This document shows, in pieces, positions 2,890-18,596 of a stretch of 20,000 bases of DNA; the stretch's first letter is position 1; every line of letters begins with the position of its first letter. The DNA lies in assembly GCA_000934665.2 (NCBI GenBank), contig JYFJ02001690.1:52646-72645 (forward strand), in the 5' to 3' direction. Made by a program: the position numbers and the translations under genes. This DNA comes from Catajapyx aquilonaris (lineage: Eukaryota). The notes under the pieces were generated by a model. That model saw only the letters and a program-made list of their open reading frames with translations, did no database searches and had not been told where the DNA came from.

Positions 2890-3172
2890 ATGGCGTCTAA
2901 ACATTTCAGACGTAAGACTCTGATTGAGCTGGTGAGGGCTTCGGCTGCTGTAGCTGGTATTGAGTTCTCCTATGCTGCGGAGACGGCGTTTGTGTCACCA
3001 ACTCTACTCAAAATTGGCCTGCCACATCGCAAGATGACATTGCTGTGGTGCCTGAGTCCTCTGATTGGGCTCTTTTTGACGCCTATTCTGGGGTCTCTCA
3101 GTGATGGTTGCCGTTCCAAGTGGGGACGCCGACGGCCCTTCTTGTTGCTGCTGGCAGTAGGAGTCACATTGG
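2890..3172 (+). CDS. Slc45-1: SLC45 coding exon 1
   Basis: First ATG after an in-frame TAG at 2845. MASKHFRRKTLIELVR...WGRRRPFLLLLAVGVTL, donor G|GTGAGT at 3173 (phase 1). Confidence 0.9.
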
Positions 3173-6100
3173 GTGAGTCTCCCTTGAAGGGTTTTCTGCG
3201 TCTTAAGTGCGTGAGTTTGCGAAGGTTGTCTTCTGAATTCTAAAACGTTATTGCTATTTCTACTAATTAAACGAAAGTTTGTGCTAAAAATGACAGTGGA
3301 CTTCAAAATTCCGCGGATTAGGACTGGGTGTCTTCACAAGTTCCACCCTGTTCCTTGCTCCAATAAGTAATGCGGGTGTGGGCCTTGACCTCGTCGCGTA
3401 CGTCCGCATTCTGTAAGAACAAAACAAAACACGTTATATCAAATGTGGATTGTCGAGGATTTTGTCCGGGGTTGGGAAAAGAAGTAGAAAATAAACAAAG
3501 AGATTCGGTGCTACATGGGGAAAGACAGTGTACAACTTATTTAGAAGTTAATGATCTGTGTAGTGTGTGTATGCTAGATTACCCTGGGTGCGTTGAAAAT
3601 TATTTTTTAAATTGATAATTAATTTTAGCAGTCAAAATAATGGTGCTTAAAACTATGACAGGACAGGTTATTCTGCCAGACCTAGGGTGACTAGTAGAGT
3701 CTTCCGAGGAATGAGTGAATAAGACGTTATATTATTGTCGAATTGAGGTCAAGATTCACTTTGAGTTCCACAGATCATTAAGTAAAGAAAACAAGCCAGT
3801 CAACAATATTTTTGAAGCTTCAAGTTACAGTTATGACAGACAGGTTGCGAATTTCATTTTCAATTTTTATGTGGCTTCATTCCCAACTTTTATTTTCTTC
3901 CCCGCTGAATTACAGTGTACATTTGTCATGATGGGCTTCCAGGATATTCCATGAAATAGAATACATGTACAAACAATAATTTTAAAGGGAACTCCTTTTA
4001 AGTAATTTTATGGTAGGCCCTATTGATTGTGTTGAAGTTGATGTAATGAACAAAGAAAAATAAAATGACCCTGTAGAAAAAGCCGAAATCCATTATCATA
4101 ATTATGTGAAACTAGAATAGACTGTGCATGAATATTTGTCTACTATGGTAGCTTGTTCAATCTTATATCGAGTGTGGGATATGAGTAAAAAATTTAGGTT
4201 TGATACACAAAAAAAAAAAATATTCTGAATTCCCTAACCCTTAACGCGGGCTTGTATTCTTAAATTATTATTTCCGACTCTTTGTCCAACATGCAGCTAA
4301 TAAGACTGCTGAGTTTTAAAAACCAATTTATTTCACTTTATATCGTCTTCTTTTGATTAAACCTGCCACGAATTTGAATAGATTGTTTCGTATCACTGTA
4401 GTTGGGGTTGTGTCACGTTATAGCTCTCTGTAGGTGCAATAGCAGTGGCCGCGCATTGGCAGATTTCAGGAATAACTGAAGATGAGATTCCAAACAAGAG
4501 GTAGAAAAATTCCAATTGAGAAAATCTTGACAGATGCAAATGCTCAAAGTAATAAAATTCTTACCCTGGACACAATTTGGCGAAGCAAGGGCCCTAGAGA
4601 CTTGAGATGGACATCCGGAATTTCTCCCATCCATGCTTCGACGAGTAGCCCATTTAGTTCCTGCGAGGAAAAAGCACTTTTAACTCTCGATTTTGTTAAA
4701 AGTAATGTAGCCTAACTTTACTTTTTAAAACCATGATACACCTGCTATGCAGGAGGACAAACACAAATTCTATTGCTTTATGAAACTATACACGTAAGTC
4801 CCATATTAAATTTTTTTTCACTATTTAAAACACGTCTTTACCAATCTCAGCATGCACGAAGCTGACAATTATTATACATGGCGTTGGGTATAGTATAACT
4901 ATAGAGGAAATAAAGAAATATCCTTACATTGCCCCTGAAGCTTGCACTATTATCATCAACAAATACGGTTGTTTTAGGATCAAATCCCAAAGTGGTAAAA
5001 TCTTTGGTGTAGGAACCATCCTCGAAGGTGCAGTGCTCTCGGTGAAAAATATACCTGCAATGAAGAGTGCCGTTAAACGCTATATTTGGACAAAAAAATC
5101 AATGGTTTTTCGGAAGCTCCTGAATCTACAGTTGGTAGCTACTACTGCATATACCGCCAAGTTCATAAGAGCCGGTCATAATCGCTTCCACATTGGATTA
5201 GCACAAGGTTTGTCATTGCTGATTTTGGAATTAGTTCGAACTTCAAATTTGGCCCCGAAATTTTTGGAAATTAAATATGGTGTATATCAGTTAATAATTT
5301 TTCTCGATCAGTAAGTAATTCTTTGGGTAAATGCTTTCATCATGGTTTAAAAAAATTATACGTAGAAAAGGTGCAGTAAGAATTCAAATCTATCAGGAAA
5401 AGTAAACCCTACGGATTTACTTGTTGGATTAAAATTGAGGCCATTTTTTTAACATGGGCCACTTTAAAAACGAATAGTTTAAAACAGGAAAGTGAGAAAT
5501 TTCCCTTGATGCGGATAACAGCTGGCTTCCGTTCCACCCGGTTCCCTATAATTATGACAATAAATATTTGTTAGGCACTTGCTTGATCCTTTTCTTGGTG
5601 GGATCTATCTTGTTAACGATAGGGGAAGCATACGTGGCAGTAGCTGCGGTGAACACATAAATATCATAGATCCGGGCCATTTGCTTCAGGAATTTCTTTG
5701 CCCATGGCCGCAGGTAGGCATCTAGGCCTTCGTGTTCTAATGCGCATATCCACTGTGCTCCCGGTATATTCTCTTCGTTTGTATATATCAAGGTGGAGTC
5801 CTGCAAAATATATAGTGTTAAACAATATTGTTGTGTCGTAACACGATCATTTGAGTCAGAATGAAAACAACAAAGTCTACTCCAGTGTGATACAACTGAT
5901 ATGCCCTTATAGCAGTTATCGATTTTTTTGGTAATAAGCTGCTCATTATTTTAAGCAGTTACTTCTATATGTGACCAAAAATATTAGTTGATAAAACTAT
6001 TTTGAACGGAAGCCCAGGCCCTAAATTGCGATTCGCGCTCGAGAGTTTGTTGTATCACAATCAACTAAAAATTATGGAAGAAAGTCAGATTGTATATTGT

Positions 6101-9100
6101 GAACACCAATACATTTTCCTATTTCCCCTCTTGCCTTAGGGTGAAATGGTGTACCAATTCGACCTAATATTAGCAGCTAATAGATGGTTCGGACAATTAG
6201 GTCAATCTTAGGTGAATCTCCTCCATTGATATAGCGCGAATCCCCACGTCAATTATAAGGAATTTTGAGTGAATCTCGCAAGTTTTTGTCGAAATGTTCA
6301 ACCCTTCGTAACTACTACATTATTTCGACAGCCTCTAGAATTAACTTACCCAAAGTAGCAGCTTAATAATTTATTTATTTATTTATTTTCATTACCCCAC
6401 GGGGGGAGTTATACTACTCCTTAGGGGGGGTGGGTTGCCACCTTTGGAATTTGTTTTGGAGCGAGTTTAAGAATAATCTTTAATTAGTATGCTCCAAGGG
6501 TGGGTGGGAGGGGATGTGCAAAGTGCAAGTGCAATGTCTCTAATCGTCATTTTGTGAACTCCCCCGGGTGGCTTAGTCTGCCGGAAATTGCCACCCGAAA
6601 CGAAGCCAGAGATGGCCCAACTCTGCACGAAAGAAGGTGGGAACCCCGGGTGTGGATTGAACCCGGGACCTTAACTTCCGTGGGCGCGCGCGTTACCGCG
6701 GCGCCACTCCGTCTCCCCTAATAGCAGCTTAATAATAAGCTACTTCATGCAAAGAAATCCCCAACCATTACGGACTACTCAAATCGTCCAGAATAACAAG
6801 ACCACATATTAAAGCTGATGCATTCGCTATGGTCCTATAATTTTTATGTATAGTGTTTCTTTCTTCTCATTGGCTTTTGCTTAACAGCATGCACACCGCC
6901 ATCGTGAATTGATGGTCTTACTGCAACAATGGGTTAATCCGCATTTTGAAAATGAACTCAAACTACAAAAACGCTTCATGTTTTGGCACATGTGCAAAGA
7001 GTTTGTTGCAGGTTGAAGATCACAAAAATAAGGAATCAGAGGGGAGTCGCGGTGGCCGAGACGGTAACGTCTCGGTTTGCTGTGCGGAAGGTCCCGGGTT
7101 CGAACCCTGCCCGGGTACTCCCTCTCGCCTGCGTCCGGAGGGTCTCTGACCCGCGCCTTGGAGGCTTCTGGCAACCTGACCTCCTGGGAGACTTTATTAT
7201 TGATATTAAGGAGGTTGGCCCATCATTGCCTTTCAACCTCCAAGGATAGGGAAGGAAGGAAGCGGCTGTGGCCTATTATATGGAAACAACCCCGGAATTA
7301 TCCTAGGAAGACCGTGGAAAACCACAGAAAACCACGGTCAGGGTTGCCGGCCCCGGGATTCGAACCCAGGACCTCCCGATTAGCAGGCGGACGCCCTATC
7401 CACTATGCCAACCTGCTTCGGTCCTCCTGGGAGACTGCACATGGCCCAACGGTTAAGACATTGCATCTGCACCTGTGTCTCCTCCCCAGAAATCCCCATC
7501 CCCATCCTATATTTTTTCATCCCTGCACGGTGTCTGAAGGAAAATCATAGAAATTGTATGGAAAATGGTGGTAGTCCACCCCCACCCCCCAAGAGGGTAT
7601 CTGGCCCTATCACGGGGTAGCGTAAAAAAATAAAAGTAAATGGTATATCTATTTCTATCATTATGTGGGTTAGCACATTGTTGCAGTAAGCCCTTCAATT
7701 GCTAGTTATTGGCTGATTTAAGTCAGGTAATCAACAGGGTTACCAGTGTCATCTCCGAGGTAAAGAAGGGCTTCAAATACAGTAATCTATAATTAATCTT
7801 GATGTAGGCCTACAAATGATGGTTCTACAGATTAAATACTTTTTACTGACGAATCGCGGGTCAGTGTACTTACGAGATCCAACATGAGCGTGTACTTATG
7901 CTTCTTCAAAGAAACGGCAGGATGAACCGTGGGATTTTCCATTACCGGAGCCATTCTTCAAAGAGCAGCAGCTGCCTCTGATTCGCTAGCTGAAAGTGAC
8001 ACAAAAAGGCACTGATTAATCAACAACTTAATTGACATACTCTGGTGTCAATCCTGGAATAACTGACATCAGAAAGTTTTTGAACATGTGGAGAAGGCCT
8101 GTACATGCCATGTTTTGAAAGTCATTTGACCTTCCATTATCTGCTGTACTGAGACAATAATTGAAGGTAGTGTAGTGACCGTATGGCAGTGACAATGTGC
8201 AGATAGATTCAGTTGTTTTATGCCGCAGCTTGCATTAATGCATAAACCTTCGCATCTCAGAATTTTTTGCTTAGCGAGTAGTCCTTTTTTTCAACTGATA
8301 TGCCATGAACGATAGCCATATTAGTAGCGCCTCATTCAAGGGTAAAAGTTTCGGTAGGTAATGGATTCTCAGAAAGAGACATAAAAGACGAATTATTTTC
8401 TGACTTCTAGGTAGTAGTAGCTACCAGTGTCAACAACTAGTAGTCATGGCAATCCATGACAAAACTAATGGGAGAATCCTCTGATAGAGAGGATTCTGCT
8501 TCGGAATCAAGGTGATTCTGCCATCAACCAGTCCATCGTCTCGGCTGCAGGATCTGCAGACCCCCTGGCTTGCAGCATCCCTTTCTTCGGCCCCTGACGA
8601 TGACGGTCCTCTTGGGCCCTCACCTCCTCTTGGCCCAAACAGTTGTCCCAATCCAGATGCTTTGCCGCTGTCTGGCTGTTGTTCTGGCAACGCCCGCTGC
8701 TGATGTCCAAACAAATAGGATCTCCCACCTCTTGACGAAATGATCTTGCCTGCTATAGCAGTATACTGCTATAGTCTCTGCTATAGAGGATTCTCCCATT
8801 AGTTTTTTCATGGATTGCCATGGTTACTAGTTGTTGACACTGGTACTGCTCCCTATAGAAGTCAGAAAATAATTCGTCTTTTGTGTCTCTTTCTGAGAAT
8901 CCATTACCCATGGGAAGCATGGGAAGCATGACCTAGTGTGACAGGACGAAAATTTCGCCCCAGGTCAGTGCTTCCCAATTTCTTTATTTCGTTGATGACC
9001 CCAAAAAATTGTCTCGTAAAATGCGACCCCCTATATGTGCACATTTCGATCCGCCAACATGAACAGACAGGTAAACAGTGAAATGACCTTACCTTATGGT

Positions 9101-9909
9101 CATGATTTTCAGCAAGATAGCACCATTTTGTGAAAATAATTTGTTACCCTCCCTCGCGACCCCAAATGGGGTCGCGACCCGCAATTTGGGAAGCGCTGCC
9201 CTATGTTAATACCTATTATCTCATGCTACATTATTTCGAGCCGAGCTAGCCAGAAGAAAATTAGTTTAAAAAAATGATGGCTGCATGGAGAGTTCTAAAG
9301 CAATAAGGAACATACTGAAGTAATGCAAATTTACATTACCGGTATTGCAGAAGGCAATACATCATGCGCACTGTTACAGTGTAAGCAGATAGCGTAACTT
9401 AAACCAAGGAGTACACCTTTGTCATTATCTGTAATATTATTGTTAGTAATGTTAGAACAATGGAATTTGAGAGTGGGGCACAATACAGGGTATTATACCA
9501 CTCCTAAAGGTCAACCATGAGGTGGTTGACTCCTTCCCACTGTTTGCTTGATGTATCGTTGTGTTCAGATTGCGCAGTCGAATGAATAACATCCACTATG
9601 TTGGAAAGTGTCCCTTTAATGATCTTGACCTTTCTAATGATATGCAACTATAAATAACTCGGAAATTGGGAGCCACGATCGGTGTCGGTGTTATCTATAT
9701 AGCATGATTCGGAATCAGGCTATATAGATTTCCACCGTCACCGATCAGAAGTGACTCTCGTAATGCAGGGCACATTTTTTATTAATAATGGCTTTCAGAT
9801 GGTTTATTTTCAGGTGATATAATATTCTGACCATTATTTGATTCATATTTTGGGTTACTTGTGGCTCCCGTCATCGCTGACTACCCCTTATAGGGAAATG
9901 TCGTGATGG

Positions 9910-9965
<56 letters not shown>

Positions 9966-12900
9966 CAAGCCAAGATATATAAAATGTACTGTTGTCCATC
10001 GATCACGTCAAGAGTTGTTGGACATCTCGGTCGCAACTATTCCCGTCTTATGCATTTAGATTTTAGAGGCTATGTAATTGCGGGATATTCGATTACTTTC
10101 TTTTTAAAAGTTTTGCTATTTAAAAGTTTTCATGGGATTCCTGGTCCCTGAAGTTAATTATTCGAAAATCAGGGAATTTAGAGTGTCTTTCTGAGGTATA
10201 GTCTGCTCTTCCACAACTACTGTCAAAAATTCTCGCATTAAATTGTGACACACTTTCATTACCCCCATATTATCACGTAGAGTATAATAAACACAATATT
10301 GAAGGGCTCTCTGCAATAAGAAGGCCTGGTATGTGCACTCATGACTTTTTCCCTGTGTTATAAAGCGAAAAGCCTACAAACCAGGTAAGACCACATTGTC
10401 CACGTTGCAGAGAACCCTTACCTGGAAGGGTTCTCTGCAGTAACGAGGTATGTGAACTTACCTGGTTTATAGGCTTTTCGCTTTAAAACACAGTAAAAAG
10501 TCCTAAGTGCACATACCTGCTTATTGCAGAGAGCCCTTCAATTTTGAAATGCTATTTTAAACGGTATTTGCACCATGGTAATTATTTTACTAACTAAATC
10601 ATCATCTATTACCTGGCATAGTAATTACTAACTACTTTTAGTTATCTTCTAGTTATCTTATCTTATACCAGCGCTCGGGCAAGTTCAGCTTCTTTTATTA
10701 CAATATGCTGCTACTGACACTGCGGCTTGGATAACATAGTGATCAGATCACAGTTGGAAAAACATTCAGCAAGATCATAAAGAATATGACCTACTGCACG
10801 TGACTAAGCAAATGTCGGTGTCAAGTTCCGTATTGTGAGTTGGTGGCTAATTTTTTGCATTAAAATGCATGCATATAAATGCGTGCTGACACCGGATAAG
10901 CAAAAATTAAAGCCAGGCCTAAGTGCAATATTCTCATATCAAGAACAAGAACAAGAATTGCAAAAAGTGACCAACACCAGAATAGTTGACCCATGTGAAT
11001 AAGCACCACCTGCAACACTTACCATGTTATCTCATAAAAATTCCCTCATAGACAATTTTAGCCTCATTTATTTCTGTATTCTGCCCAAATAAATTGAATA
11101 ATTATTTCTCTTCCAACCTTCCCATTATTTTGTAACCTTTAGAGTAGTACCGGTACTGTACTGTACAGCAACATCACATCATCAAACTGCCTTACTTCAC
11201 TCGATACACAGCATACTGCAAACTATTTCCTGGACATTTATCAAGAAACTGACTCCAAAACCTTCGAAACTGAAACACGCGTTTTAGAGCTAACCAATAG
11301 GGCAAGGTTCGAAGTCCAGCAAGGTAGAAAATGGTGCTGAGAGTTCCAAATAAAATGAATCAAAACAATGTAGCCTACTGACACCTCTCAAATGCAAAAG
11401 GTGCCAATTAACTGAACAGATGATGCACTTTAATTTTATTAGACCTCGCCCCTTCCCCCTGCTAGGTCATTCAACTGAACCCATGAATTCACACATATCT
11501 ATTGACAAAGCAGGTGACCTGGACGGACCTGGACCTTGTGTAAATTCACGAGTTCAATATTAATCCGATTACTTACAAAATTGCTGGAACTTTGCTGGAT
11601 TCTTGCACTTAACAACACTGGAGGCAATCGCAACGTCTTCACTCACTCGCAACCACAAATAGAATGTGAACAATTTTCACACAATACCCAAGATGCAATG
11701 GGGGATGGCTCTGGATGTCCCGGGACACTTTTTTGCTATGCATCGAAGCCATTGTTTCCTGTCGTAGACACACGCGTCCTGTCCTAAATAGCAGAAATAT
11801 TTTCCGCGAATCGGAAGGCGCCAGCACACAATAGATCACGATTTTTTCCCCCTTCTGAGATGGTTCCAGGTTGCACAGAATATTATTGACACTTGCAAAT
11901 TCCAGTTGTACAAGCACGTAAACACGAACGAATTGAAAATATGCAGGCCAGTTATTGTCTTAGTTCATTGCACTTGCGACACAATGATTTGTGGAGACTT
12001 CCTGGCGACATTCCATTCGGAGGAAGAAACAAAAGCTACATTTTTGATGCTATTAAAATCTGGATTAAACTAGTCTGATATGGTATTTCAGGACATTTGA
12101 CTGTAAAAAATAATAATACTGTGTTTGGTTCCAACTTACAAGTGATTTCCCCCCACTGCACTGTATTAAAATTAGATAAGTAATTTATACTCCAAACGCT
12201 CGCGCTCGCTCCAGACATTCCGATTCCGGATTAATACTAATACTGTAGTACAGTACAAGAAGCATACTGTACGTACTATATACGACAAATTGTTTCATAC
12301 CCCCGGGGTATGAAACAATTTGTCGTATACCTAGGTATAGTGCTATATACGACAAATTGTTTCATACCCCGGGGGTATGAAACAATTTGGCGTATATGTA
12401 CAGTATATGCACATATTTTAACACAAAAAAGTCCAACATATTTTAGCGGAGTCTTAGCTGGACCGCGACGATATTATTTTGGTAATTGTGTTAAACGGAA
12501 TAAGTATTCTCGTAGGCTGAGATACCCTGTGAAATGATAAAATACCTCGTTGCACTTTATTAGGTATAATTCCACTGAATTTGCATGAGCTAAAAGTCAA
12601 GCTCCCTGTGGTATGCAGGTCAAAAATCCCACGATACCCATTGTGTTATTTCATTGTGTTACGTCAAACCTGAAATGACACGAATGAGTTTTTGGTAAAC
12701 AGATGCCCAACTTTGGTTGTATCTTAATATATTTGCCATCTGTTTTCTACGGCATCGCTAATTTCTTGATAAAAACTGGAAACATCTGGCCCGATCAGGC
12801 CTGCAATTTATTACAAAAAGTGGAATAAACAGTCAAATAATTCAGTGCTCAAAAAGTTGAAATAATAGTGTTACTGGACCGGTACTAGAAGTGATTTTCA

Positions 12901-15900
12901 TATCTCAAAATTTAAATTATTACGGTGCTACTGTCATTACTGCAGTACCGGTACTAATAGGCTACAATTATTATCCCGCACTATCTATGGAATGTACTGT
13001 GCAGTCCACTATACTTGACATTCTCCCCAGTCACTATTTTGTCCAAGAAATTAATAAAAGCTACCTAACTCGTATTTTGAAACCGACATTTTAATAATTA
13101 CGGAGCGCATAATTTGCGTATTTAAAAGCTTAGGAAAAGTGATGACAGATGGAAATAGAATCAGGCACGCCACTCAAACGGGAACATTATTATTATCATT
13201 GTATTTAATCACTCTTATGGAGTTTATTATAGCCGCAGTATGCACAGTACCTTTTTGTTATCGTTTTGAAGGTCTTCTGCTGGTGCCGAATGGAGCATAT
13301 TTTGGATATCTACTTGGCGACCCTGCAATGGACACTACTGGAAACATCACCACCTATGTAAGCAGACCATGGGGGGTCTTCTTCACAGTGTTCGGGGCCG
13401 TCTTGCTGGATTTTGATGCGGATGCTTGCCAAAGTCCTGCTAGAGCATACATCCTGGATGTCACTACTGAGGGTAAGGTTTCAACTCCATTGTTACTCAT
13501 TATTCTTCAGCAACTTTAATGATTATCATATCTCGATCTTCTGTGTACTATTTCCCGAATATAAAAATTCCGTACACTCGTTCTTTGGCATATCCTTCCT
13601 AGTACCATAGTATAATCGAGCTCTATCTTCAATTTAGCGGATCATGCTAGAGGTCTAAGCACGTTTACCATCATGGCCGGACTAGGAGGTAGCCTTGGCT
13701 ACACTCTGGGTGGTGTTGATTGGGATTCGACATTATTAGGTGAGTAGCAGTCTACCTTTAAAAAATGGGCTCAAACTGTTGATTTCTTCATTTTTATGCA
13801 GGGTATGTTTTGGGTGGACATGTACGTGCTGTCTTCACACTGGTCACTTTTATTTTTGTGGTTTGCGTATGGATCACTCTGACCAGCTTTCGTGAGAAGC
13901 CTCTCACATCACCCGAGGTAAGCATCAGTTGATAACTTGGATATTTCTTTCCAGAGTTGGAGGACAGAAGTGGCTGGAGCTGGCCTATTTTTGTAAAAAT
14001 CGAAGGCTACTGTTATTCAAACTCTGGCCGCACTTTATGCTGTGTAAATGACGGAGAGATGGGTCGTATTGTGTGCCTGATCCCACCGCATTTCCCCATT
14101 GAAAACTGTGATCCAGCAGCTATAGTGTCGTCAGTTTTGGATTTGCTGCCAATAATATTATATAAAGAAAAACGTGCTCAAACGACAGTCCGCCTGCATA
14201 TCCAGTTCTTCAGATATTCACATAACGTGGGCTTGAAATAGATGTGGTAGATCCAACCCGGTGCGCACTTAATTGGGACCCGGATTAATTTGTTTGGTGC
14301 TTTTGGGGGGATTCTCCCACGATGGGCATATCCCACGGACTGCGGAGACGGATAAGCGGATTGCTCTCCTCCGAAAGAGGATTTCCTGTGAAATTGATTA
14401 CTCTACATTCCAACTTATCGGTGCGATGCTCTGGTCCTCCTGGCTTTATCCAAAATTCCGAATATATTTTGTTTGCAGCTGGCCTCTGGACATAATGGCA
14501 ACACCGGCTACATGCACTTCTCAGATGACGCTGCAGAGGATGATTCTGAAGTCAAGGCTTCCTATGGCACCATGGAAATTATGCGTACCAATCCGGACCT
14601 TCCTCCTCTCCGGACCGGGCCACCACGGGATGATACCCGTCTCTGCCACAACTGCGGTTACGTCAACATTTCCTACGATGAAGACAACGAGGAGAGAAAC
14701 GAGACGTCATTTTCCGTGGAGGACAAGCGTAATGGCACAGTAAGTAAATATGTATGACTTATTAAGAAGTGCCAGGTACAAAAACAAAATGTGACATTGC
14801 AGGGTGAGAAACCAGTTCCGCCCAAGACATTGAGTTTGGCACAATCAGAACCACACCCTGATGACGAAACTCCAAGCTTCTTGCATTACCTGCACTCTAT
14901 CATCAACATGCCCGGCTGCCTGGCCTCATTGTGTCTCACCAACCTTTTCTGCTGGATGTCTCTGGTCTGCTATTCACTTTACTTCACGGACTTTGTGGGC
15001 GAGGCTGTTTTCGGCGGTGATCCACAGGTCAGGTTGACACTTTTAATAGCCCTTTTCAAACGAGTCCGATCACCTAATTCTACACAATACCATGGACAAT
15101 ACGACGACATAATGGAAAAATGAGCTCTTAATGGACAGTGCGAACTTCTTGCCGATTCTTTGGAGATGTGGGCGGTATATAGGTTGGGAGGCATGGTGAC
15201 GGCCAGCGTGTCAAACAATCCATCGTACGCCTTGAGTTGTTATGTAGGCTATTAATGTGCAGTACTGTAGGCCTATATTAGGTGTCTCAATCCCGCAGGC
15301 TGCACCGGAATCCGAATCTCGTCAGAAATATGAAGCAGGAGTGAGACTCGGATGCTGGGGAATGGCCCTGTATTCCCTGTCATGTGCGTTGTACTCCTCC
15401 GCCATTGCCAAGCTGATTGAACGTTTCACGTACGTTACAGATTCTGTCTTGCTTTTACTTCCAGCTCTTCACTAATATTATGTCTTGTACTACGTAGGGC
15501 TCGTCCCGTATACATCGGTGGTCAACTAGTATACAGCATCGGGATGGTTGGGATGTCCTTCATACGTCATCCAGTAGGTGTGGTGCTGTTGTCTTGCACT
15601 GCAGGAGTCATGTATTCGACTCTGTTCACCATGCCGTACATGCTCGTGGCCCGCTACCACACCAACAACGTGGTGAGTAGGCCTAGTAACGCTGATTGGC
15701 AGATTCTTAAAGACTACATGTGGATGGCAAAACAAACTATTCGGTCTGTAAATGAGTGGCACCTTAGTGGCTATCAGTGCGCTATCAATAGGACATTAAA
15801 TTCGACGAAAAATTGCAAAAATGTGTCACAATTTATTTTTTCTATTGTTATGCAAAATTGTACAGGATATAGGCATTATAACCGAATGTTGACATGGATT

Positions 15901-16166
15901 TTCTTCAGATGCCTCCATGCGAGGCTTGGCCTCTGCGCTTGCTGAACTCCAATACTTCTGGAACGACCCAAAGTAGGAACCGAGGATTGGGTACCGACAT
16001 AGCTCTAGTCAGCAGTTGCGTCTTTTTGGCTCAGTTCTTGCTGTCTCTGGCCATGGGGTATCTGGTGACTGCCATCGGAAGCACCGTGGCCGTCGTTGCC
16101 TCAGCTGCTTTCTTGGCTCTGATGGGTGCCCTCTGTGCCACACAGATTCCATATGCTGGTCTGTAA
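2890..16166 (+). CDS. Slc45-1: SLC45-family MFS proton-coupled sugar transporter (proton-associated sugar transporter A / lovit-like), 9 coding exons, 583 aa
   Basis: Exons 2890-3172, 13272-13472, 13638-13739, 13802-13917, 14479-14739, 14803-15027, 15299-15429, 15498-15672, 15909-16166 join through GT-AG introns with consistent phases into 1752 nt (583 aa + TAA). Recognised SLC45/sucrose-transporter motifs: GIEFSYAAETAFVSP, LSDxCxSxWGRRRPF, LLDFDADACQSPARAY, MAGLGGxxGY, LYFTDFVGEAVFGGDP, YxxGVRxGCWG, RGLGTDIA. Family call is firm; exact orthology is inferred. Confidence 0.93.
4327..4332 (-). promoter_or_regulatory. Candidate polyadenylation signal of the nested phosphatase gene
   Basis: AATAAA on the - strand about 80 nt after the TGA. 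Confidence 0.5.
4413..4475 (-). CDS. SCP-like phosphatase terminal exon 5
   Basis: Acceptor CTCATCTTCAG. LFLKSANARPLLLHLQRAIT then TGA. NARPLL resembles the DVRxxL end of the domain. Confidence 0.75.
   Translation of the reverse strand, partial: LFLKSANARPLLLHLQRAIT
4413..7954 (-). CDS. Nested antisense FCP1/SCP (CTD small phosphatase-like, NIF domain, HAD superfamily) phosphatase, 5 coding exons, ~194 aa
   Basis: Exons 7954-7874, 5800-5583, 5054-4928, 4660-4565, 4475-4413 splice in frame to MAPVMENPTVHPAVSLKKHKYTLMLDL/DSTLIYT...AYLRPWAKKFLKQMARIYDIYVFTAATATYASPIVNKIDPTKKRIK/YIFHREHCTFEDGSYTKDFTTLGFDPKTTVFVDDNSASFRGN/ELNGLLVEAWMGEIPDVHLKSLGPLLRQIVSR/LFLKSANARPLLLHLQRAIT*. This is collinear with the SCP consensus (LVLDLDETL, RP, FTA, YA, RExC, YxKDL, VDN, N.ip..W). 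Confidence 0.9.
4565..4660 (-). CDS. SCP-like phosphatase coding exon 4
   Basis: Acceptor TTTTTCCTCGCAG. ELNGLLVEAWMGEIPDVHLKSLGPLLRQIVSR, donor AGG|GTAAGA. Confidence 0.87.
4928..5054 (-). CDS. SCP-like phosphatase coding exon 3
   Basis: Acceptor CTCTTCATTGCAG (phase 2). YIFHREHC...YTKDF...VFVDDN, donor AAT|GTAAGG. Confidence 0.9.
5583..5800 (-). CDS. SCP-like phosphatase coding exon 2
   Basis: Acceptor TATTTTGCAG. DSTLIYT...LRPW...VFTAA...YASPIVNKIDP. Ends at AA|GCAAGT (GC donor, phase 2). Confidence 0.9.
6371..6718 (-). mobile_element. Full-length tRNA-derived SINE with 15 bp TSD
   Basis: Head GGGGAGACGGAGTGGCGCCGCGG (A box), GGTTCAATCC (B box, 6663-6654), (AAAT)n tail. Perfect direct repeat TAGCAGCTTAATAAT at 6356-6370 and 6722-6736. 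Confidence 0.9.
7041..7636 (+). mobile_element. tRNA-derived SINE interrupted by a second SINE
   Basis: A box TGGCCGAGACGG (7053), B box GGTTCGAACCC (7097), A-rich tail at 7624-7636. The 3' body matches the reverse complement of about 18240-18352. Confidence 0.85.
7194..7422 (-). mobile_element. Short tRNA-derived SINE nested in the 7041-7636 SINE, 14 bp TSD
   Basis: Head ACCGAAGCAGGTTGGCATAGTGG...GGTTCGAATCCC, core GGTTTTCTGTGGTTTTCC...GGCCACAGCCGCTTCCTTCC, AATAATAA tail. Direct repeat CCTCCTGGGAGACT at 7180-7193 and 7423-7436. Confidence 0.9.
7874..7954 (-). CDS. SCP-like phosphatase coding exon 1 (exon starts at 7989 including UTR)
   Basis: ATG 7954-7952 in AGAATGG context, in-frame TGA at 7960-7958. 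Ends ...KYTLMLDL with donor CTC|GTAAGT. Acceptor ACTTTCAG at 7990. Confidence 0.88.
8041..8148 (-). other. Probable upstream (5' UTR/uORF) exon of the nested phosphatase
   Basis: Bounded by tandem acceptors TTGTCTCAG/TACAG/CAG and donor AGA|GTATGT. A 51 nt intron (8040-7990) links it to the ATG exon. Confidence 0.5.
8357..8908. mobile_element. Non-autonomous DNA transposon / foldback element with ~125 bp inverted repeats
   Basis: 8357-8482 is the reverse complement of 8785-8908 (about 90% identical by eye), around a GC-rich core. The true ends may extend to about 8339 and 8961 (GGGTAAAAGTTTCG vs CGAAAATTTCGCCC). Confidence 0.8.
8966..9198. mobile_element. hAT-like MITE
   Basis: TIRs CAGTGCTTCCCAA / TTGGGAAGCGCTG, subterminal hairpin GCGACCCCAAATGGGGTCGC, degenerate 8 bp TSD CCCCAGGT / CCCTATGT. 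Confidence 0.75.
9668..9759. repeat. Imperfect palindrome (~70 bp core, 9677-9746)
   Basis: GATCGGTGTCGGTGTTATCTATATAGCATGATTC-G-GAATCAGGCTATATAGATTTCCACCGTCACCGATC. Confidence 0.8.
9911..9964 (+). repeat. (GTT)18 microsatellite
   Basis: Perfect trinucleotide run. Confidence 0.97.
10298..10542. mobile_element. Palindromic MITE-like element
   Basis: Termini ATTGAAGGGCTCTCTGCAATAAG / CTTATTGCAGAGAGCCCTTCAAT. The arms are complementary along almost the whole length, and the central hairpin repeats the terminal motif. Confidence 0.85.
11577..11783 (-). other. Possible further upstream exon of the nested transcript
   Basis: Acceptor TTTCTGCTATTTAG, donors A|GTGAGT (11646) and T|GTAAGT (11576), ATG in AAACAATGG context at 11752. 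No homology recognised. Confidence 0.25.
12265..12405. mobile_element. Double-palindrome MITE-like element
   Basis: Two 51 bp palindromes (12279-12329, 12346-12396) of TATACGACAAATTGTTTCATACCCC-N-GGGGTATGAAACAATTTGTCGTATA, bounded by TACTGTAC...GTACAGTA. Confidence 0.8.
13272..13472 (+). CDS. Slc45-1: SLC45 coding exon 2
   Basis: Acceptor TTTTGAAG. GLLLVPNG...LLDFDADACQSPARAYILDVTTE, donor G|GTAAGG. Confidence 0.93.
13638..13739 (+). CDS. Slc45-1: SLC45 coding exon 3 (not in ORF track)
   Basis: Acceptor AATTTAG. ADHARGLSTFTIMAGLGGSLGYTLGGVDWDSTLL, donor G|GTGAGT. Confidence 0.93.
13802..13917 (+). CDS. Slc45-1: SLC45 coding exon 4 (not in ORF track)
   Basis: Acceptor TTTTTATGCAG. GYVLGGHVRAVFTLVTFIFVVCVWITLTSFREKPLTSPE, donor GAG|GTAAGC. 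Confidence 0.92.
14479..14739 (+). CDS. Slc45-1: SLC45 coding exon 5 (central cytoplasmic loop)
   Basis: Acceptor TTTGTTTGCAG. Acidic loop LASGHNG...SYGTM...EDKRNGT, donor ACA|GTAAGT, phase 0/0. Confidence 0.85.
14803..15027 (+). CDS. Slc45-1: SLC45 coding exon 6
   Basis: Acceptor ATTGCAG with a weak pyrimidine tract. GEKPVPPK...LCLTNLFCWMSLVCYSLYFTDFVGEAVFGGDPQ, donor CAG|GTCAGG. Confidence 0.9.
15299..15429 (+). CDS. Slc45-1: SLC45 coding exon 7
   Basis: Acceptor TCCCGCAG. AAPESESRQKYEAGVRLGCWGMALYSLSC...IERF, donor AC|GTACGT (phase 2). Confidence 0.92.
15498..15672 (+). CDS. Slc45-1: SLC45 coding exon 8
   Basis: Acceptor CTACGTAG. ARPVYIGGQLVYSIG...YSTLFTMPYMLVARYHTNNV, donor GTG|GTGAGT. 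Confidence 0.92.
15909..16166 (+). CDS. Slc45-1: SLC45 terminal coding exon 9
   Basis: Acceptor TTTTCTTCAG. MPPCEAW...RGLGTDIALVSSCVFLAQ...QIPYAGL then TAA. Confidence 0.92.
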   Translation: MPPCEAWPLRLLNSNTSGTTQSRNRGLGTDIALVSSCVFLAQFLLSLAMGYLVTAIGSTVAVVASAAFLALMGALCATQIPYAGL

Positions 16167-18230: not shown

Positions 18231-18596
18231 TTTTTTATTTTTAAGATATACCCCGTGCTAGGACCATAGGCCCTCTTAGGGGAGTGGATTACCACTATCG
18301 TGCAGGGACAGGGATCAAGTTGGGGGTCGTGTGCAGTCCCTCAGGGGGCCCGTTCGCCAAGATGATGCCCTAGATGCGAGTCAGATATTCCCCACCGACC
18401 CGCACCTCCTCCAGGGCAGGGAAAGGAAGGAAGCGGCTGTGGCCTATTTTACGGTATGATCCCGGAAATTTTTCCTGGGACGACCTTGGGAAACCACAGA
18501 AAACCAAGGTCAGGATCGCCGGCCTCCGGGATTCGAACCCAGGACCTCCCGATTAGCAGTCGGACACCATATCCACTCCACCACTACTGCTTCGGT
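18231..18596 (-). mobile_element. Full-length tRNA-derived SINE, 8 bp TSD
   Basis: Head and core closely match 7246-7422. A-rich tail. ATTTTGCT at 18223-18230 and 18597-18604. Confidence 0.88.

Follow-up and report, generated by a model that had tools for sequence, protein, structure and literature searches.

A probable FCP1/SCP-type phosphatase gene nested antisense in the first intron of an SLC45-type transporter gene of Catajapyx aquilonaris

INTRODUCTION

A stretch of 20,000 nucleotides from Catajapyx aquilonaris (assembly GCA_000934665.2, contig JYFJ02001690.1, positions 52,646 to 72,645), which is referred to here as the window, carries a transporter gene of SLC45 type on its plus strand, and within the first intron of this gene minus-strand open frames are found that resemble a phosphatase of FCP1/SCP type. 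The locus raises the question whether these frames constitute a real and intact gene or something less, and, if a gene, how it relates to the known phosphatases of this family. From the analysis presented here we conclude, with a probability of roughly 0.6, that a real, intact protein-coding gene is nested antisense in intron 1 of the SLC45-type gene, and that it encodes a bare NIF domain of 194 residues belonging to the SCP/Dullard branch of the HAD superfamily. The phosphatase gene is probably functional.

RESULTS

Five minus-strand exons form an open frame of 194 codons

The minus strand of positions 4200-8200 was read and its stop-to-stop frames were catalogued. When the five exons 7954-7874, 5800-5583, 5054-4928, 4660-4565 and 4475-4413 were joined by a script according to their coordinates, a stop-free sequence of 585 nt was obtained, comprising 194 codons and a TGA stop codon at 4415-4413. 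A first-pass annotation of this DNA had proposed five minus-strand exons at 4413-7954 encoding 194 amino acids without stops, and rejoining the exons reproduced both the positions and the length. The coding exons and the signals around them, all on the minus strand, are:

7874..7954, minus strand: coding exon 1, 81 nt, 27 codons; donor GTAAGT at 7873
5583..5800, minus strand: coding exon 2, 218 nt, residues 28-100, with D28, T30, a shortened insertion hairpin, R58-P59 and T78 of motif II
4928..5054, minus strand: coding exon 3, 127 nt, residues 100-142, with R105, C108, K117 and D118 of motif III, D133 and D134 of motif IV
4565..4660, minus strand: coding exon 4, 96 nt, residues 143-174, with N145, D158 and the helices at the C-terminal end of the domain
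4413..4475, minus strand: coding exon 5, 63 nt, 20 codons and TGA; placed by splice signals and open frame only
4327..4332, minus strand: candidate polyadenylation signal AATAAA, about 80 nt past the stop codon
7990..8040, minus strand: possible intron of 51 nt in the 5' untranslated region, AGA/GTATGT ... CACTTTCAG, directly before the start-codon exon; predicted from sequence only

The start codon at 7954-7952 has an A at -3 and a G at +4 and is preceded two codons upstream by an in-frame TGA, and the 3' end of exon 1 encodes the first Asp and the Leu of motif I (D26, L27). Initiator-like TCAGT words are present at about 8057 and 8152, near the possible intron of the 5' untranslated region. 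The GC content of third codon positions is 0.51 in the phosphatase coding sequence, as compared to 0.56 in the exons of the host gene and 0.32-0.36 in the repeat-poor introns. As the phosphatase value is well above intron GC, base composition in the exons has not decayed to that of their surroundings. No further NIF-like pieces were found in the window beyond the five exons.

The encoded protein belongs to the FCP1/SCP family

Family membership was assessed by searching the exon frames singly against the Pfam NIF profile (PF03031; profile length 160, gathering score 21.8 bits). Exon 2 matches profile positions 8-83 (E 6.2e-14, 52.4 bits) and exon 3 positions 81-126 (E 4e-9, 36.8 bits), so that each of them exceeds the gathering score alone; exon 4 matches positions 119-154 colinearly with E 0.016 and 15.4 bits, below the cut-off. 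The three matches lie in order on one strand and span the profile from end to end, in agreement with the previous assignment as an FCP1/SCP-type phosphatase, and the Pfam E-values exclude a chance assembly of open frames. Among the NCBIfam models, TIGR02251 (dullard-like domain) is the best, with 47 bits for exon 2 and 29 bits for exon 3, while TIGR02250 (FCP1-like) reaches 39 bits.

Comparison with protein structures points in the same direction. With exon 2, 15 distinct PDB sequences were obtained at E<=0.01, including CTDSP2 (2.3e-6), SCP1 (2.6e-6 to 1e-5), CTDSPL (2.8e-5), FCP1 (4.8e-4) and TIM50 (3.5e-3). The ten distinct sequences found with exon 3 include CTDSPL (2.5e-4), CTDSP2 (2.9e-4) and CTDNEP1 (6.1e-4), followed by SCP1. 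No UBLCP1 chain is among the PDB matches of the two exons at E<=0.01. In the ESM Atlas, all 30 of 30 matches are NIF clusters, with a top score of 0.92. The protein had been described as a nearly bare catalytic domain; indeed only 25 residues precede motif I and 20 follow the NIF domain, with no other Pfam domain in the 194 residues.

The catalytic motifs are intact and family-conserved positions are spared

Relatives were collected by scanning 1.84 billion representative proteins with HMMER, exon 2 being the query; this gave 223 proteins at E<=1e-3, one at E<=1e-10 and none at E<=1e-30. From the best 150 of the 223, 97 domain segments covering at least 110 model positions with an i-E below 1e-5 were retained and aligned with the 194-residue model. 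All four HAD motifs named in the first-pass annotation (DLDST, FTAA, TKD and VDDN) could be located in the spliced protein. Motif I, D26-L-D28-S-T30, extends across the junction of exons 1 and 2, and its columns are 93-97% conserved in the 97 relatives. T78 of motif II occupies a column with 98% T, and K117 of motif III, which is followed by D118, one with 96% K. In motif IV, D133 stands in a column with 95% D and D134 at a position where 75% of the relatives carry N.

By virtue of its family, the protein would be a phosphomonoesterase that depends on Mg2+ and most likely acts on phospho-Ser/Thr in proteins. D26 would attack the phosphate to form an aspartyl-phosphate intermediate, D28 would serve as general acid/base, T78 together with K117 would hold the phosphate, and D133 and D134 would bind the metal.

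Constraint was counted over the 150 columns that are filled in at least 80% of the rows, a match being the commonest residue of the column:

Conserved columns (commonest residue in at least 70% of rows): 38, the model being identical in 28 and similar in 3 more
Middling columns: 50, the model being identical in 19
Variable columns: 62, the model being identical in 12

At the 38 conserved columns, the family rows themselves have a median of 33 matches (range 21-38); for 24 of these 97 rows the count does not exceed the 28 of the model. Departures of the model at these columns include E to S in motif I, H to Y33, N to D134, R to I102 and R to F124. Exon 4 keeps the conserved columns N145, D158, L161 and L168 of the family alignment. 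Exon 5 has no homology: 29 of the 30 best relatives among the 97 stop aligning at model residues 155-174 and one at residue 185. Divergence that spares the family-conserved positions is as expected for a protein that has been under selection, and an identity of at most 38% with no stop, frameshift or lost motif would be hard to arrive at by neutral decay.

The protein is strongly diverged from its relatives

The protein had been called quite diverged from canonical CTDSP1, CTDSPL2 and CTDNEP1. A strong divergence from CTDSP, CTDNEP1, FCP1 and TIM50 is borne out by weak single-exon matches and a long branch in the tree. Among the best 150 of the 223 library proteins, identity to exon 2 is 26-55%, values above about 45% being confined to stretches of about 40 residues. 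Over the domain, the top identity of the model to the 97 relatives is 38% (121 columns). When the 194-residue model was used as a local query, the best single-domain score was 97 bits. A word-index protein search with exon 2 for longer proteins gave 27 candidates, none of which was scored.

A quick maximum-likelihood tree built from 98 rows places the model on the unresolved backbone and in no well-supported group, with an end branch of 1.13 as compared to a median of 0.54. Since the rows were chosen by similarity to exon 2 and are nameless, this tree shows isolation and not parentage. The earlier suggestion of fast evolution fits the long branch. Close kinship with the SCP orthologues was not found: the model scores 83 bits against P0045, an SCP-like library protein, ranking 56th of 79 (median 109.5), and falls into no supported clade, whereas P0045 itself reaches 236 bits with human CTDSPL. 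Two near relatives score 153 bits (P0048) and 116 bits (P0081) against SCP1.

Two of the unnamed library proteins, P0001 (780 amino acids), which is the best library match to exon 2, and P0022 (954 amino acids), contain four complete NIF domains in tandem each, and their scores are therefore sums. Some of these repeats are without the second Asp of motif I. P0001 and P0022 may represent genuine multi-domain proteins, or else tandem arrays whose gene models were fused. A single metagenome locus obtained from 198 pattern matches was set aside as irrelevant, with only a 22-residue stretch at 55% identity and no other exon shared.

One of the four introns probably has a GC donor

The gene is interrupted by four introns:

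5801..7873, minus strand: intron 1, 2073 nt, GT-AG, phase 0, GTAAGT ... TTTTGCAG; splits the DxDxT motif between L27 and D28
5055..5582, minus strand: intron 2, 528 nt, GC-AG, phase 2, donor CAA/GCAAGT ... CATTGCAG
4661..4927, minus strand: intron 3, 267 nt, GT-AG, phase 0, GTAAGG ... CCTCGCAG
4476..4564, minus strand: intron 4, 89 nt, GT-AG, phase 0, GTAAGA ... ATCTTCAG

With four introns of its own, the gene cannot be taken for a simple retrocopy, as had already been argued on the first reading of the locus. Retention of intron 4 closes the frame after six more codons. The phases of the five exons had been called consistent. They do close, but only by way of one non-canonical GC-AG intron that the first-pass annotation did not mention. 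Since exon 3 begins in phase 2, only the first two bases of a codon can stand at the end of exon 2. Each GT and GC between 5640 and 5545 was therefore surveyed together with its phase. The 194-residue frame requires the GC donor GCAAGT at 5582, which shows the full consensus AAGT at +3 to +6 and lies in precisely the required phase. It is unlikely that such a sequence would occur in the right phase by chance, and we take the GC at 5582 to be the real donor.

The other candidates for this donor were rejected or are of minor rank. The GT at 5578, which forms positions +5/+6 of the GC donor itself, leads to a total of 589 nt in which the frame breaks after 125 amino acids. Use of the GT at 5558 (TT/GTCATA), a poor donor, gives 202 amino acids with an insertion of six to seven residues unlike the relatives, and is kept as a minor alternative only. 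The GC at 5576 has a poor consensus. GC-AG introns are a normal minority processed by the major (U2) spliceosome. They are reported to account for less than 1% of introns in model organisms (PMC7072748), and a GC donor is reported for about 1% of human introns (PMC3167603).

The phosphatase gene lies within intron 1 of the transporter gene

The limits of the host intron are given by two plus-strand exons:

2890..3174, plus strand: first coding exon of the SLC45-type transporter gene, found by protein search; placed at 2896-3174 by tblastn
13271..13465, plus strand: next coding exon of the host gene, found by tblastn of four arthropod SLC45 proteins

As the next coding exon starts at 13271, intron 1 of the host gene extends from about 3175 to 13270 (about 10.1 kb). 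The phosphatase gene is situated wholly between the host exons, that is between 3174 and 13271, on the opposite strand, just as the antisense nesting had been described. For the first host exon, 424 proteins at E<=1e-5 were found among 1502 candidates. The best 120 of these 424 are 69-81% identical to it, and those with a name are mostly from insects and crustaceans, where they are called 'proton-associated sugar transporter A', 'membrane-associated transporter protein', 'solute carrier family 45 member 4' or 'loss of visual transmission'. The product of the fly gene 'lovit' is a vesicular histamine transporter. Six or more further coding blocks of the host gene lie in 13271-16163 on the plus strand. 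The block at about 14400-15030 has only 36-50% identity to other arthropod SLC45 proteins and probably corresponds to a variable cytoplasmic loop.

The host exon also indicates how far the protein databases reach. Its best match among the best 120 of 424 has 81% identity and none has 100%, so the database includes neither the proteome of this species nor those of its close relatives. Blank protein searches with the phosphatase exons mean less for this reason.

Repeats in the surrounding intron

The host intron is rich in repeats, some of which lie inside or next to the phosphatase gene:

7345..7416, minus strand: tRNA-like core inside phosphatase intron 1, called as a 72-nt 'tRNA-Ser(GCT)' by ARAGORN; Rfam tRNA 31.7 bits (cut-off 29)
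7237..7422: repeat around this core, with an 83% copy of 189 nt at 18408-18596, 11 kb away
about 6640..6720 and 7060..7130: further tRNA-like pieces
8357..8908: element resembling a miniature inverted-repeat transposable element (MITE), just upstream of the phosphatase gene; its arms form two nested inverted pairs, 53 nt at 98% and 61 nt at 95% complementarity
10294..10546 and about 12273..12397: similar, smaller foldback elements
9895..9969: TGT/GTT trinucleotide microsatellite of about 25 units in the host intron, poly-Leu in one frame

The repeat at 7237-7422 probably represents a family of short interspersed nuclear elements (SINEs) and not a working tRNA gene; a real tRNA-Ser has a long variable arm. 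No direct or inverted repeat in the window brackets the phosphatase gene as a unit. The 31 other open frames of at least 70 amino acids in the window are without a Pfam match, so no transposase or viral domain is seen among them. A scan of viral contigs yielded nine pattern matches and no relatives.

DISCUSSION

Weighing the explanations

The observations described above are best accounted for by an intact phosphatase gene in the transporter intron. Several points weigh against this conclusion. The gene model is a prediction from genomic sequence, and a quite recent loss of function would leave no visible trace in these data. One of the four introns needs a non-canonical GC donor, the scores of which were taken from a rough matrix of generic frequencies and serve as a guide only, and splicing at the GT four bases downstream would shift the frame of the message. 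Furthermore, the frames of exons 1 and 5 have no Pfam match on their own, exon 4 alone stays under the Pfam cut-off, and the scores of 47 and 29 bits for TIGR02251, obtained with exons scanned singly, add up to well below the cut-off of 139.15 bits.

Some of these points are what would be expected of a relic, i.e. an NIF gene that arose by duplication and has lost its expression or proper splicing, for example after a GT to GC mutation of the intron 2 donor, and that is too young a pseudogene to have acquired stops. The non-canonical donor is located at the one junction that would be out of phase without it, no relative closer than 38% over the domain was found for this unplaced long branch, and the distance from the TIGR02251 sub-family cut-off would fit decay as well. 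We nevertheless regard a relic as unlikely. Its 194 codons contain neither stop nor frameshift and all catalytic motifs are kept, the 28 identities at 38 conserved columns are within the range of family members, GC donors with AAGT at +3 to +6 form a normal class of U2-spliced introns, and third-position GC in the exons is still well above intron GC. The gene could also be an ordinary functional one, the 1:1 orthologue of an NIF gene annotated in related arthropods and as such neither hidden nor lineage-specific. This would be compatible with an intact gene and bears on its novelty only. It would be in keeping with databases that lack the species and its close relatives, where even the highly conserved host exon finds at most 81% identity, and with the unnamed state of the representative-library matches. 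We are doubtful about it all the same, because the same data source covers many insects and crustaceans and supplies host-exon matches of 69-81% (best 120 of 424), whereas exon 2 retrieves only 223 proteins at E<=1e-3 in 1.84 billion, with identities of up to 55% (best 150 of 223) and the highest ones over about 40 residues only; in addition, none of the 27 word-index candidates was scored and no supported group of the tree contains the gene. That the frames are cargo of a transposon or virus, or were assembled by chance, is very improbable. The host intron is indeed repeat-rich, with MITE-like inverted repeats and with SINE copies inside intron 1 of the phosphatase gene, but no repeat brackets the gene, neither a transposase nor a viral domain occurs in the 31 other frames, the viral scan gave no relatives, and the E-values obtained with Pfam speak against chance.

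Significance of the locus

An intact phosphatase gene at this locus, if expressed, would be an unusually small and diverged addition to the FCP1/SCP phosphatases of arthropods. With its intact catalytic residues and altered pocket, the protein would offer a compact natural variant for asking what sets the choice of substrate in this family. The locus would also illustrate how a real gene may escape gene finders: the exons are short, one intron is of GC-AG type, the gene lies antisense within a repeat-rich intron, and it lacks a close homologue. It is at the same time a modest addition to a known family, as insects commonly have nested genes as well as diverged paralogues. Intronic genes are reported to make up about 6% of the genes of D. 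melanogaster (PMC3786989), and insect nested genes such as 2mit in tim2 resemble the present case in that an antisense protein-coding gene lies within an intron of its host. In the open-access literature, neither a pairing of an SLC45-type host with an NIF phosphatase nor an expansion of the NIF family in insects was found.

Comparison with known phosphatases

The human small phosphatases SCP1/CTDSP1, CTDSP2 and CTDSPL (PDB 1ta0, 2q5e and 2hhl) are the top structure matches, with 2.3e-6 to 2.8e-5 for exon 2 and 2.5e-4 to 1.3e-3 for exon 3. The new protein has in common with them the nucleophile/acid pair of the DxDxT motif, the Thr, the Lys and the acidic motif IV as well as the R-P after the insertion hairpin, the 'RExC' stretch and a catalytic core of similar size. 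It differs in being only about 35% identical, in the absence of an N-terminal extension, in having DLDST instead of DLDET in motif I and DD instead of DN in motif IV, and in a Tyr at the position of His103. While the SCP-like P0045 reaches 236 bits against human CTDSPL, the three exon pieces of the new gene reach about 30, 24 and less.

In SCP1, Asp96 is the nucleophile assisted by Asp98, and the prolines of the repeats in the carboxy-terminal domain (CTD) of RNA polymerase II (Pol II) are reported to be bound in a hydrophobic pocket formed by Phe106, Val118, Leu155, Tyr158 and Arg178 (PMC7281111). The SCP1 numbering was transferred through the HMMER alignments of exons 2 and 3 to the PDB chains, Asp98 being the Asp of 'DETL'. 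The residues aligned with the pocket are E36, L48, T81, Y84 and R105, of which two are identical (Y84 and R105 for Y158 and R178), one is a conservative replacement (L48 for V118) and two are polar (E36 for F106 and T81 for L155). Furthermore, the insertion hairpin is four residues shorter than in SCP1. From the two polar replacements in the pocket and the shorter hairpin we infer that the substrate is probably not the Pol II CTD read in the manner of SCP1; either the substrate or its mode of binding would be different. A more specific picture, which we put forward only tentatively, would be that of a lineage-restricted, functional 'minimal SCP' with a rebuilt groove (F106 to Glu, L155 to Thr, short hairpin) and a target other than the Pol II CTD, residing with its conserved GC-AG intron in intron 1 of an SLC45/'lovit'-type gene and possibly expressed in a limited set of tissues, e.g. 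the germline, like other fast-evolving NIF paralogues.

Among the other members of the family, CTDNEP1/Dullard (PDB 8ujl) is the third-best structure match for exon 3 (6.1e-4), and no NCBIfam model scores higher on exons 2 and 3 than the 'dullard-like phosphatase domain' TIGR02251, although the exons taken singly stay far under its cut-off. The length of the linker from the 'DP' turn to 'RExC' presumably fits Dullard as well. Dullard carries a hydrophobic N-terminal anchor, whereas no such anchor can be read in the 25 residues ahead of motif I in the new protein. The protein is not of the type of FCP1 proper, which has a C-terminal BRCT domain and a large FCP1-specific insertion, as it ends 20 residues past the NIF domain and the match of FCP1 chains to exon 2, at only 4.8e-4, covers 42 residues. 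UBLCP1 has an N-terminal ubiquitin-like domain, CTDSPL2 a long N-terminal region and TIM50 a presequence and a membrane anchor; these three types do not fit the protein either, since only 25 residues precede motif I and no other Pfam domain is present, TIM50 matching at only 3.5e-3.

Fast-evolving extra copies of NIF-family genes are already known, ttm2 versus ttm50 being an example. Drosophila ttm2 is described as a testis-specific paralogue of the NIF-family protein Ttm50/Tim50 with 49.8% identity, and testis paralogues are said to evolve rapidly (PMC7465004). The new gene resembles ttm2 as a diverged extra NIF-family copy in an arthropod. However, ttm2 encodes a mitochondrial import subunit of TIM50 type with about 440 residues, whereas the gene presented here encodes a bare domain of 194 residues that is nearer to SCP and Dullard.

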